Below are positions 13,050 to 15,665 of a DNA stretch of 15,665 nt, piece by piece. Location of the stretch: IMG/VR virus record IMGVR_UViG_3300031998_000029, positions 1 through 15,665 of that record; one strand, 5' to 3'. The stretch comes from a virus. Lineage: Duplodnaviria > Heunggongvirae > Uroviricota > Caudoviricetes. Made by a program: the position numbers and the translations under genes. The notes under the pieces are model-generated. The model had not been told where the DNA came from and searched no databases. It worked only from the letters and a program-made list of their open reading frames with translations. Each line of letters starts with the position of its first letter. Position 1 is the first letter of the stretch.

Positions 13050-13631
13050 ATGACTCGGGGAGAGTTTTTTGAAAATGTTATAGACTGGAGCGATCTGAAA
13101 GATGTCTGCGAAGAGTACGGATGTGACATCTGCGATGACATATATAACGACGACGGCAGAGACGACATAATAGAAGACCGCCTGTATGACTGGGTAAGGA
13201 GCGAATCATGGAGAGATGTGAGAGACTATCTCACTTGCTACAGTACCAACTCATACGACTGGTGGATATATGACGATAATTATGACGAATGGGAAGAGGC
13301 AGGCGACGGCCTGTTCGAAGTGCGCAAAAATGACGTCGCAGAGTGGCTGAGCGAAAACGGTCATTTTGAAGACGAAGAAGTATGCGACGAAACCGAAGAC
13401 GAAGATTTCTTCGGACAGGAAGAAATACACGACGAGCCCGAAGAGGACGCCGAGCCTGATAACTTCGACTTCGGAGAAATGTTATCGTCTTCCGCAGTTT
13501 TCATACGCGAGGCCGAAGAGCAGCTTAAAAAGAAAGAAGAAGAAGACAGGCAGAGACAGGCAGAAGAAATGCGCAGCGAGTCCGAGGCCGCCGCCGCGTT
13601 CAATGATTTCGTATCGGGTTTCCAGATTTAA
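13050..13631 (+). CDS. Highly acidic hypothetical protein, 193 aa
   Basis: SD AAGGAGG. About one third Asp/Glu by hand count. N-terminal C-x4-C-x2-C. Confidence 0.8.
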   Translation: MTRGEFFENVIDWSDLKDVCEEYGCDICDDIYNDDGRDDIIEDRLYDWVRSESWRDVRDYLTCYSTNSYDWWIYDDNYDEWEEAGDGLFEVRKNDVAEWLSENGHFEDEEVCDETEDEDFFGQEEIHDEPEEDAEPDNFDFGEMLSSSAVFIREAEEQLKKKEEEDRQRQAEEMRSESEAAAAFNDFVSGFQI

Positions 13632-13649
13632 GGATTGAAAGGAGTACAA

Positions 13650-14324
13650 ATGAATCTTAGTAAGTCATATGATTTTTTCCAGCCGGAAAAGGATAAGGCG
13701 CGTATACACATCATAGGCTGCGGCTCCGTCGGCAGCACCCTTGCGGAAAATCTGGCAAGGTGCGGCGTCACGAGGATGACGCTGTGGGACTTCGACAACG
13801 TCGAATCGAAGAACATAGTCAACCAGATGTTCCGTCAGCAGGATATCGGCAAGCCTAAGGTAGAGGCTCTGCGCGATATACTGCTTGAGATCAATCCGGA
13901 AATAGAGGAGGATCTCGAACTCAAGCCCGAGGGATGGCAGGGAAATATGCTGTCCGGATACATCTTTCTTGCCGTCGACAATATCGATCTTCGACGCAAA
14001 ATAGTAGAGCAGCATATGAATAACGCATATGTAAAGGCGGTTTTTGACTTCCGAACTCTGCTCGAAAGCGCACAGCACTTCGCGGCTGACTGGAGCAGTC
14101 CGGCTTCAAAAAAGAATCTGCTGAGCACGATGCAGTTTTCGCAGGAAGAGGGTCTTGAAGAAACTCCCGTTTCGGCGTGCGGCATAACGCTCGGAGTTGC
14201 CACGACCGTCCGCCTTATATGTGCACTCGGCGTGAACAACTATATAAACTTCGTCAAGGGCAACGGCATCTGGAAGTTCTGTCAGATAGACGGCTTCACC
14301 GGCACGCTCGACTGTTTCAAGTAA
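13650..14324 (+). CDS. ThiF/MoeB/E1-family adenylating enzyme, 224 aa
   Basis: IIGCGSVG nucleotide-binding loop, WDFD, KNIVNQ, GKPKV and AVDN..LR motifs. Candidate catalytic Cys in PVSACG (codon 14178-14180). No CxxC Zn pairs. SD GAAAGGAG precedes ATG 13650. Confidence 0.92.
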   Translation: MNLSKSYDFFQPEKDKARIHIIGCGSVGSTLAENLARCGVTRMTLWDFDNVESKNIVNQMFRQQDIGKPKVEALRDILLEINPEIEEDLELKPEGWQGNMLSGYIFLAVDNIDLRRKIVEQHMNNAYVKAVFDFRTLLESAQHFAADWSSPASKKNLLSTMQFSQEEGLEETPVSACGITLGVATTVRLICALGVNNYINFVKGNGIWKFCQIDGFTGTLDCFK

Positions 14325-14379
14325 AGCAGAGATGAAAGAATCGAATCCGGAAAGTTAAATCCATGCTGGTAAACAAAAC

Positions 14380-14412
14380 TCACGCAGAAAGAAATATCTG
14401 CGTGAAATTTTT
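14380..14412 (+). terminator. Terminator-like hairpin after E1
   Basis: TCACGCAGA-AAGAAATA-TCTGCGTGA followed by AATTTTT. Confidence 0.6.
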
Positions 14413-14444
14413 ACAAACTGATAAAACAGATTTTTACAGGAGGG

Positions 14445-14648
14445 ATGCCTATGAATCGCGATTTTGACCCGATCCCGCTGAGCGCAGCGATAGTCCGGCA
14501 GGCTTTCGACGATTATCAGGAATTGCGCAGGAATAATATCGAGGAAAGGAAGACCAGAGACAGAGGAGAATACTCTATGGAAGAGCTGAGAGTATTTTTT
14601 TCAAGCGACTGGGGCAGATTCCTATTGATGATGACGCACAACATATGA
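14445..14648 (+). CDS. Small hypothetical phage protein, 67 aa
   Basis: SD AGGAGGG; helical pattern AIVRQAFDDY...FFSSDWG. Confidence 0.65.
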   Translation: MPMNRDFDPIPLSAAIVRQAFDDYQELRRNNIEERKTRDRGEYSMEELRVFFSSDWGRFLLMMTHNI

Positions 14649-14654
14649 AAAACA

Positions 14655-14961
14655 GACTGTAATGATATTTATGTAACCAAAAGTTACATGGCTCTTCGCC
14701 GTCGGCAAGAGTAACGCCATGACGAGGGGACGTATGTCCGGAGACGACCCGTATCCTGAAGAAAAAAACACCTCAAGAAAACGACAAAAAAAAAAAAAAC
14801 ACAGTATCAAAACAAAGCTGAAAACAACAACAAAGCACCCACCAGCACAAACCCCAGGATACAAAACGCGGATTTCCCGGAAGAAAAGACCACAAACATC
14901 GTACACCAGATCTTCAGACCATACCTCCCACATCCTAAATAAAGATAACTAGATTACAGTC
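14655..14961 (+). ncRNA. Putative retron-like msr-msd ncRNA upstream of the RT
   Basis: Terminal inverted repeats GACTGTAAT (14655-14663) / ATTACAGTC (14953-14961), with G14664 directly after the 5' repeat. Two short hairpins (ATGTAAC/GTTACAT 14671-14689; GCTCTT..AAGAGT 14691-14712). An internal stem GTATCCTG/CAGGATAC encloses a 96-nt loop. Ends 19 nt before the RT start. Confidence 0.7.
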
Positions 14962-14980
14962 GGCAAGAAAGGAAAAGAAA

Positions 14981-15665
14981 ATGATCTACATTACGACTCC
15001 GCAGTCTCCGGTATATCCGCAGATAACACTGGAAGAACTGCTGTTTATGCCGGATTACAATCCAAAGCCGATATTGTGGAATTTTGCAAACACGCGAACA
15101 AGAGAGGCGGAACGCGCCCCGGCAGAGCTGATGCGCAAGATCGACGTAAACGCGCTGATATCACGGCTTTCCAAGTTCAATGCGGATACGGAATACCTGC
15201 GCAGCAAACCGCGAAAAGAACTTTACAGAGAGTTCTTTATTCCAAAGAAGGGAAGCGAGGGAGGCAGGATAAAGTGGCGCCGTATAGACGCCCCAAACCC
15301 CGATCTCATGAATGCTTTGTACACGCTCAAGTCGATATTTGAAGACAATTTCCGTGTTCTCTATCACACTTCGGCGTTTGCATATATAAAGAAGCGCAGC
15401 ACAATAGACGCAATAAAAAGACATCAGGAAAACGAGAGCAGATGGTTTGGGAAGTACGACCTGTCCGATTTCTTCGGAAGCACGACGCTCGACTTCGTTA
15501 TGGACATGTTCTCGATGGTGTTCCCGATATCAGAAGTCGCAAGGCGTCCGGACGGAAGAGCGGAGCTGAGAAAGGCGCTTGAGCTTGCGTTTCTTGACGG
15601 CGGGCTCCCGCAGGGAACCCCCATATCTCCGCTTATAACGAACGTCATGATGATCCCCATAGACT
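14981..15665 (+). CDS. Retron-type reverse transcriptase, 3'-truncated by the window end (228 codons visible; missing from the ORF track)
   Basis: SD AAGAAAGGA. Open frame MIYITTPQSP... carries RT motifs YREFFIPKKG..WRRIDAP, HTSAFAYIKKRS, KYDLSDFFGS and GLPQGTPISP. The YxDD motif would lie beyond the window. Confidence 0.9.
   Translation, partial: MIYITTPQSPVYPQITLEELLFMPDYNPKPILWNFANTRTREAERAPAELMRKIDVNALISRLSKFNADTEYLRSKPRKELYREFFIPKKGSEGGRIKWRRIDAPNPDLMNALYTLKSIFEDNFRVLYHTSAFAYIKKRSTIDAIKRHQENESRWFGKYDLSDFFGSTTLDFVMDMFSMVFPISEVARRPDGRAELRKALELAFLDGGLPQGTPISPLITNVMMIPID

Follow-up and report, generated by a model that had tools for sequence, protein, structure and literature searches.

The stretch of DNA analyzed here, which we call "the window", comprises 15,665 nt and corresponds to the first 15.7 kb of an IMG/VR virus record that is 97% complete, with a phage genome of 114,910 bp. 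Close to the right end of the window, an ORF at 14445–14648 is followed by a non-coding region bounded by two inverted repeats (14655–14961) and by a reverse transcriptase (RT) gene that begins at 14981 on the + strand. The stop codon of the ORF is 7 nt upstream of the first repeat. Only 228 of the 384 codons of the RT gene are in the window. Because the record continues beyond position 15,665, the truncated gene can be completed: the full ORF spans 14981–16135 of the record and encodes a protein of 384 amino acids. The YxDD motif that the first-pass annotation proposed to look for beyond the window is present as YADD. A purine-rich stretch on the + strand (14966–14977), read from the sequence, is the putative ribosome-binding region of the RT gene; it lies outside the second repeat, and the spacing between that repeat and the RT start is similar in relatives. 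We saw no convincing sigma-70-type promoter ahead of the first repeat, and an Rfam scan of positions 13500–15665 matched zero families.

The carrier is a ~115-kb phage of gut/rumen Clostridia. The phage context had been proposed from the window, and the largely complete virus record bears it out. The hosts are identified as Clostridia by relatives of the RT in metagenome-assembled genomes (MAGs) of that class. The phage may be temperate, since its genome has two integrase-family genes, and it also encodes an ERF-family single-strand annealing protein.

Judged by profiles and structures, the RT is a divergent enzyme of the retron clade. Pfam RVT_1 matches the ORF, and in PADLOC only retron RT types rank among the best models, with RT_II-A at the top (5e-41) and types III-A and I-A next. 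The NCBIfam model retron_St85_RT (NF038233) gives E = 7e-46, with a score of 156.8 bits that is below its cut-off of 235. Indeed, the RT passes none of the curated family cut-offs. We rejected a group II intron RT or maturase, for which TIGR04416 scores 72 bits (4.5e-20) against a cut-off of 300 and Rfam gives no match around the locus. We also rejected the UG/Abi class (DRT2, DRT3, DRT9), with Drt2 at 39 bits (4e-10) against a cut-off of 390 and Drt3a at 23 bits against 200. Among solved structures, the 12 named best matches in the PDB are retron RTs without exception; Ec83 and Ec78 lead, and the matches include Ec83, the Ec78/St85 family, Kva2, Ec86, and Ec67. Profiles and nearest structures alike agree with the earlier call of a retron-type RT downstream of the ncRNA, and they place the enzyme with neither the group II intron nor the DGR RTs.

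The catalytic motifs of the RT are intact. YADD, LPQGTPISP, and other RT motifs are at least 90% conserved across 66 family members, and we take the QGTPISP motif to resemble the retron/group-II form rather than the DGR form. NAxxH and VTG, which Mestre et al. reportedly described in 2020 as signature motifs of retrons, are degenerate throughout the family. In an alignment to Ec83, NAxxH (NAKIH in Ec83) becomes A-I-K-R-H and VTG becomes N-L-G; across the 66 members, only the H and the G are retained. The N terminus is ~65 residues longer than in bacterial retron RTs. Because the scores fall below the cut-offs and the NAxxH and VTG motifs are degenerate, we assign the RT to no named type.

The non-coding region upstream of the RT gene, all of it described here on the + strand, begins with a1, the 5′ arm of the inverted repeat (14655–14663; GACTGTAAT), and ends with a2, the 3′ arm (14953–14961; ATTACAGTC). 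The a1 sequence is the exact 9-bp reverse complement of a2, and the two arms are paired in both the MFE and the centroid folds; the chance of finding such a partner within 420 nt is ~0.002. The a1/a2-like repeats of the first-pass annotation are therefore exact, and the G that it placed immediately after a1 is confirmed at G14664. This candidate priming (branch) guanosine is directly 3′ of a1 and corresponds to a near-invariant G column in the seed alignment of relatives. Two msr-like hairpins, also predicted earlier, appear in the MFE and centroid folds. Msr hairpin 1 (14670–14690) has an 8-bp stem in the MFE fold and varies in sequence among relatives; by eye, a hairpin of differing sequence occupies this site in 16/16 seed sequences. 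Msr hairpin 2 (14691–14712; CTCTTC-GCCG-T-CGGC-AAGAG, with a bulged C) is of a conserved, recognition type and is followed by a TAAC-type motif. The whole msr module (14656–14727) matches our covariance model R1 with 54.4 bits (E = 1.2e-9), a score that is not independent because this copy is a member of the R1 seed.

Downstream of the msr, the region lacks the long stable msd hairpin typical of canonical retrons, as had been noticed from the sequence. Instead, an 8-bp stem (14751–14758, GTATCCTG; 14855–14862, CAGGATAC) encloses an unpaired loop of 96 nt (14759–14854) consisting of 59 A, 25 C, 8 G, and 4 T, with a run of 14 A at 14786–14799. Stem and loop (14751–14862) are kept in the MFE and centroid folds, and TCCGG (14737–14741) and CCGGA (14877–14881) flank the stem on the outside. 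The motif CCUGAAGA (14755–14762) lies at the start of the variable body; its CUGAAG (14756–14761) coincides with the beginning of the A/C tract. A second G-poor tract follows at 14882–14950 (30 A, 21 C, 12 T, and 6 G in 69 nt). The UAG directly 5′ of a2 (14950–14952) provides the predicted first templated bases. The stem, the outer pair, the loop counts, the A-run, and the second tract all stand as noted earlier, when the loop was counted by hand. The loop is the sole 96-nt window with an A+C fraction of at least 0.85 in the 114,910-bp genome.

The folded RNA has an energy of −59.9 kcal/mol (z = −4.0 versus shuffles) and retains a1/a2, both msr hairpins, and the 8-bp stem. The predicted cDNA is close to structure-free and does not exceed shuffles in structure (−10.95 kcal/mol over 225 nt, z = −1.5), in line with the earlier expectation of an unstructured product. 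The A-run itself is seen in contigs from two DNA runs of one bovine-gut sample, perhaps the source of the record. These are the only two sequencing runs listed with the locus, and no RNA run is among them. These contigs show no variants, and both end at the run. Because both assemblies break exactly there, the exact length of 14 is the least certain detail of the locus.

Relatives of the RT are numerous: IMG/VR has 59, metagenomes gave 80 that were retained, and Clostridia MAGs contain 12. Among GenBank phages, the closest RT is 39% identical and sits on an unannotated fecal contig; the ncRNA has no DNA match in the GenBank phage collection. R1 matches 73 + 104 modules in ~140 RT-homologous loci, and every one is on the RT strand. 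A layout recurs in which one module is ~330 nt upstream of the RT gene, another is just past its stop codon, and more lie further downstream. R1 answers the earlier call for a covariance model from homologous loci, and the msr hairpin does covary. Specifically, hairpin 2 has compensatory changes in 7/8 pairs, a level of covariation reached by 0/500 shuffles and not approached by slid registers of the hairpin.

The features on either side of the body also recur. In 124/179 modules, counted at ≥7 bp plus G, an a1/a2 helix of 7–15 bp ends beside a G. Immediately ahead of a2, ~95% of the 107 distinct modules have a G, most often in the context TAG (45), CAG (20), or GAG (9). Such a conserved AG before a2 is what would be expected of an initiation site. 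CUGAAG occurs 17–41 nt past the msr in ~18–22 of 84 representative modules, versus 4.4 expected. A closing stem formed by CUGAAG and a CUUCAG further downstream was considered as a common feature and set aside, because the pairing is not general among modules.

The first-pass annotation took up a single template. In the phage genome, msr hairpin 2 (CTCTYCGCYGNCRGCRAGAG then TAAC) is found at 14692, 16172, 16736, and 27995, all on the + strand, and R1 finds exactly four modules, such that one RT apparently serves four templates. The module described above is module 1. Module 2 (16141–16460 of the record) begins right after the RT stop codon, and its a1/a2 is weak and interrupted (4+4 bp, read partly by eye). 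In modules 3 (16693–16923) and 4 (27957–28147), the a1/a2 has the form CCTACGAT-G ... ATCGTRGG and the msd is a long hairpin of the classical kind; both modules adjoin tRNA genes or tRNA clusters. The cDNA of module 3 is predicted to fold with −43.6 kcal/mol (z = −9.8). Taken with the retron-clade RT, the covarying msr hairpin, and the a1/a2 plus G, the retron architecture first proposed for this one locus proves to be family-wide. We consider that 14655–14961 is probably a genuine msr-msd template RNA of the phage retron-clade RT, and the RT-proximal one of four.

The unusual composition of module 1 is best seen against the bodies of its relatives. Its body (14728–14952) has an A+C fraction of 0.74, the highest of 107 distinct bodies, for which the mean is 0.555; several relatives reach 0.62–0.70, and most bodies in the family are not A-rich. 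By this comparison, module 1 is the extreme of a family-wide A/C skew and no separate kind. On the folding models, the skew would prevent structure from forming in the unpaired stretches of the template and, by extension, in the cDNA. Runs of 9–14 A occur in 6/84 representative bodies, every other base reaches at most 7, and the RNA strand of these bodies has no T-runs. Two near-identical loci, L007 and L008, differ in run length (A9 versus A10).

The bodies are also hypervariable. In the pair L012 and L014, the RT genes agree at 1100/1100 positions, the 400 nt upstream and the msr are identical, and 21/196 body positions differ. Across the closest pairs from nine independent identical-msr groups, the RT differs at 116/9000 positions (1.3%) and the body at 349/2469 (14.1%). 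The body thus diverges ~10–11 times faster than the RT gene between near-identical relatives, with the msr invariant. Divergence at third codon positions is 0–2.2% in the pairs checked. Since body divergence exceeds this, relaxed constraint alone is insufficient as an explanation. The changes are mainly C/T and A/G transitions plus 1-nt indels; they are not adenine-specific and do not look like those of coding sequence. Wobble misincorporation (G>A, U>C) was considered as a source of the A/C skew; for polarized singletons, the per-site rates are 0.093 versus 0.080 and 0.108 versus 0.098, which is no clear bias. Gene conversion between upstream and downstream modules was rejected as the source of variation because their bodies are unrelated. 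These measurements were made on the modules of relatives: an exact-pattern scan of viral contigs found no near relative of module 1, and a metagenome scan returned only an identical fragment without module 1. Given that the body around the A/C tract is of a kind that varies strongly throughout the family, the sequence of the tract is unlikely to be a conserved specific ligand.

Two other ways of reading the tract were rejected. First, two ORFs run through it: one of 77 aa on the + strand (14719–14952), which begins within the msr and has no Shine-Dalgarno sequence, and one of 103 aa on the − strand (14622–14933). We regard both as by-products, since A/C-rich sequence has few stop codons, and we reject coding because 1-nt indels separate the bodies of near-identical relatives. 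Second, the cDNA strand carries a single GCTGGTGG, the E. coli Chi sequence, complementary to 14839–14846. The AddAB Chi sites of Clostridia differ from E. coli Chi. Because the hosts are Clostridia, and since we found no enrichment of Chi-type k-mers across bodies, we take this match to be a coincidence.

By analogy with characterized retrons, the ncRNA and the RT gene would be co-transcribed. The a1 arm would pair with a2, and the conserved msr hairpins would be bound by the RT. Synthesis would be primed from the 2′-OH of G14664, and the body would be copied leftwards from the U/A/G of 14952–14950 to give a branched RNA-DNA molecule. The DNA part would be ~190–225 nt of G/T-rich, nearly structure-free single-stranded DNA with a T14-type run. 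Module 1 would thereby yield an ssDNA without structure, and the DNAs from modules 3 and 4 would be hairpins.

What might these DNAs do? We favor, with low confidence, a decoy or counter-defense role, in which abundant small DNAs would act on nucleic-acid-sensing or DNA-binding proteins of the host or of rival phages. This seems the most likely role because the locus has no effector gene and the carrier is a phage. The first-pass annotation had seen no cognate effector, and this holds on both flanks: within several kb, Pfam and PADLOC recognize no known retron effector family, and only a ThiF/E1 gene upstream.

That E1 gene bears on the leading alternative, i.e., that the unit is a defense retron carried by a phage or prophage for superinfection exclusion, with an effector that goes unrecognized (e.g., the Ubl E1/E2/JAB cassette or a small ORF) and msDNAs that serve as sensors or antitoxins. 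To our knowledge, all characterized retrons are defense systems, and many are on prophages; a temperate phage would suit such a role. The ThiF/E1 gene of a ubiquitin-like cassette is directly upstream of the ncRNA-RT unit in 125/150 related loci, with the ncRNA occupying an E1-to-RT gap of median 465 nt, and the E1 matches CBASS-type E1-E2 defense profiles. This synteny could mean that the effector is present and simply unrecognized, which would make the system one of defense rather than counter-defense. However, among phages of common descent, a conserved gene order argues only weakly for a functional link, and four scattered templates per RT, two of them in tRNA clusters, are unlike any described layout of a defense retron. 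With no known effector family nearby, we consider a defense retron unlikely, albeit the strongest of the alternatives to a decoy.

A decoy role is compatible with a further proposal, which we regard as doubtful and which concerns the origin of the variation. The phage's own ERF-type protein may anneal the small DNAs back into the genome as it replicates, so that the bodies are continually overwritten with RT errors and slippage products. The element would then be a natural, self-targeting "recombitron" yielding a fast-evolving library of decoy DNAs. Annealing-back would explain three observations: hypervariability confined to the reverse-transcribed body, at ~11 times the rate of the RT gene and well beyond that of synonymous sites; long A-runs on the RNA strand only; and the drift of bodies to odd compositions such as the A/C tract.

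The tract may alternatively act as RNA, as a sponge for an Hfq-type protein or as a leader for RT translation, with reverse transcription minor or absent. RNA made of A and C only is incapable of base pairing, (ARN)n-like A-rich tracts are classic ligands of the Hfq distal face, and the tract does lie within the 5′ leader of the RT gene. Against this, the tract is enclosed by a1/a2, with a priming G and an AG before a2, an arrangement identical to that of modules with no ORF downstream; the ribosome-binding region is outside a2; and the bodies are hypervariable and mostly not A-rich. We therefore think it improbable that the tract works mainly as RNA.

Lower still in our estimation is slippage of the RT on the A14 run to give long poly-dT, a DRT9-like homopolymer made from a retron scaffold. 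Homopolymer synthesis by a defense RT has reportedly been documented and would be a precedent, and both the bias of long runs toward A and the A9/A10 difference between near-identical loci fit slippage. Nevertheless, 78/84 modules have no such run and the RT falls outside the UG/Abi class, which makes a homopolymer product quite improbable. Finally, a DGR-like mutagenic template, in which misreading of adenines would diversify a target gene, would account for an A-rich template and a hypervariable region beside an RT, yet the "diversifiable A-rich template" idea of the first-pass annotation fails and is scarcely credible: a whole-genome scan found no variable repeat (the best match at non-A positions, ~60%, is at chance level), relatives differ mainly by transitions rather than at adenines, the variable sequence is the template itself, and the RT has retron profiles and a QGTPISP motif unlike the DGR form.

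Retrons are known as bacterial defense systems with one RT, one RNA, and one effector. Here, as far as sequence comparison goes, a large family of uncultured Clostridia phages keeps a retron RT with several effector-less templates, the bodies of which evolve faster than any neighboring sequence. If the DNAs are made, these phages would use multicopy ssDNA offensively or in competition. In that case, the family might also represent a new mechanism of localized hypermutation, and it would offer a natural precedent for long, unstructured "cargo" in the msd loop, which would be useful to retron editors. Module 1 is the cleanest test case, since its predicted product is an easily recognized ssDNA of G and T only.

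How does this family compare with known systems? A metagenomic survey (Hlife 2024; PMC13681634) describes, in the part available to us, a virus-encoded RT clade that shares ancestry with bacterial retron RTs, and speculates on interference with host defense. That part is silent on template RNAs, multiple modules, hypervariable bodies, and Ubl synteny. The phage RT family may or may not fall within RTC3 or RTC5 of that survey. We found no description of these template RNAs in the searchable literature.

The closest relatives among bacterial systems are retrons of two lineages, Ec83/Ec78 (type I-A) and St85/Sen2, Ec86 (type II-A), whose RTs are of the same clade by profiles and structures. As in bacterial retrons, the ncRNA is directly upstream of the RT gene on the same strand, with a1/a2, a G after a1, and two msr hairpins; long msd hairpins are present in modules 3 and 4. 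Unlike bacterial retrons, the system is carried by a large phage, has no recognized effector, and has four templates for one RT; the RT has the extra N-terminal residues and the degenerate NAxxH and VTG motifs; and the body of module 1 has a 96-nt A/C loop in place of a hairpin, in a family whose bodies are hypervariable. DRT9-type RTs and DGRs resemble the locus in that a non-coding template lies beside the RT and one element is A-rich or homopolymeric. They differ in RT class, and the phage locus has no TR/VR pair, no adenine-specific changes, and a retron-type a1/a2-G.

Engineered retron editors, including recombitrons, provide the last comparison. These carry cargo in the msd loop, and phage genomes have been edited by the combination of RT-DNA and an annealing protein (bioRxiv 10.1101/2023.03.24.534024). 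Module 1 resembles them in having a short msd stem around a long unstructured "cargo" loop, in a phage that encodes an ERF-family annealing protein. Unlike recombitrons, it is a natural element, and the only genomic match of its "cargo" is its own gene.

The reverse transcriptase (RT) that follows the A/C-rich module of the window, i.e., the msr and its template body bounded by the a1/a2 repeats, serves three more msr-msd modules, all located beyond the window. The second module (record positions 16141–16460; positions 476–795 of L062, a piece of the same record) is bounded by a1/a2 repeats of merely 4+4 bp, which are interrupted. The third and fourth modules (record 16693–16923 and 27957–28147; L062 1028–1258 and 12292–12482) each have a long hairpin body and an adjacent tRNA or tRNA-like gene.

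Template bodies diverge rapidly. Across nine independent groups of near-identical phages, body divergence is ~11 times that of the adjacent RT gene, e.g., between the related phage loci L012 and L014 at positions 2714–2976; despite this, the msr is invariant in all nine groups. In four related loci (L010, L011, L012, and L014), the upstream module and the downstream one have bodies that are unrelated to each other apart from a shared short palindromic motif, CCATTGAT(A/T)ATCAA.

A second motif, CUGAAG, is found at 14756–14761 in the window and in ~20 other modules. It is present in 25 of 84 modules, with 4.4 expected, and lies 17–41 nt 3′ of the msr in about one fifth of modules. Among modules carrying the motif, there was no general pairing of CUGAAG with a downstream complement.

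A-runs of 9–14 nt occur in 6 of 84 representative bodies, examples being window positions 14786–14799 and the bodies of L085, L068, L006, and L007. Long runs in these 84 bodies are invariably A on the RNA strand, with runs of other bases reaching at most 7 nt. Run length differs between the near-identical loci L007 and L008. Public contigs from the two bovine-gut runs end precisely at the A14 run of the window (L001 1887–1900), which makes the length of this run the assembly's least certain feature.

Elsewhere, the phage genome carries genes for a single-strand annealing protein of the ERF family and for two proteins of the tyrosine-integrase family, at record positions 43009–43485 (+), 104092–104610 (−), and 112170–112709 (−); no Pfam match to RecT or SSB was found in the phage.

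A ubiquitin-like cassette has its ThiF/E1 gene (window 13635–14324) directly upstream of the ncRNA-RT unit. Between this gene and a small ORF (14445–14648; phrog_7024, function unassigned), whose stop codon is 7 nt 5′ of a1, lies a hairpin that resembles a terminator and has a T-rich tail (14380–14405). ThiF/E1 is immediately 5′ of the ncRNA-RT unit in 125 of 150 related loci, where the median gap between the E1 end and the RT start is 465 nt, occupied by the upstream ncRNA. It is possible that the E1 of the ubiquitin-like cassette is functionally linked to the retron.
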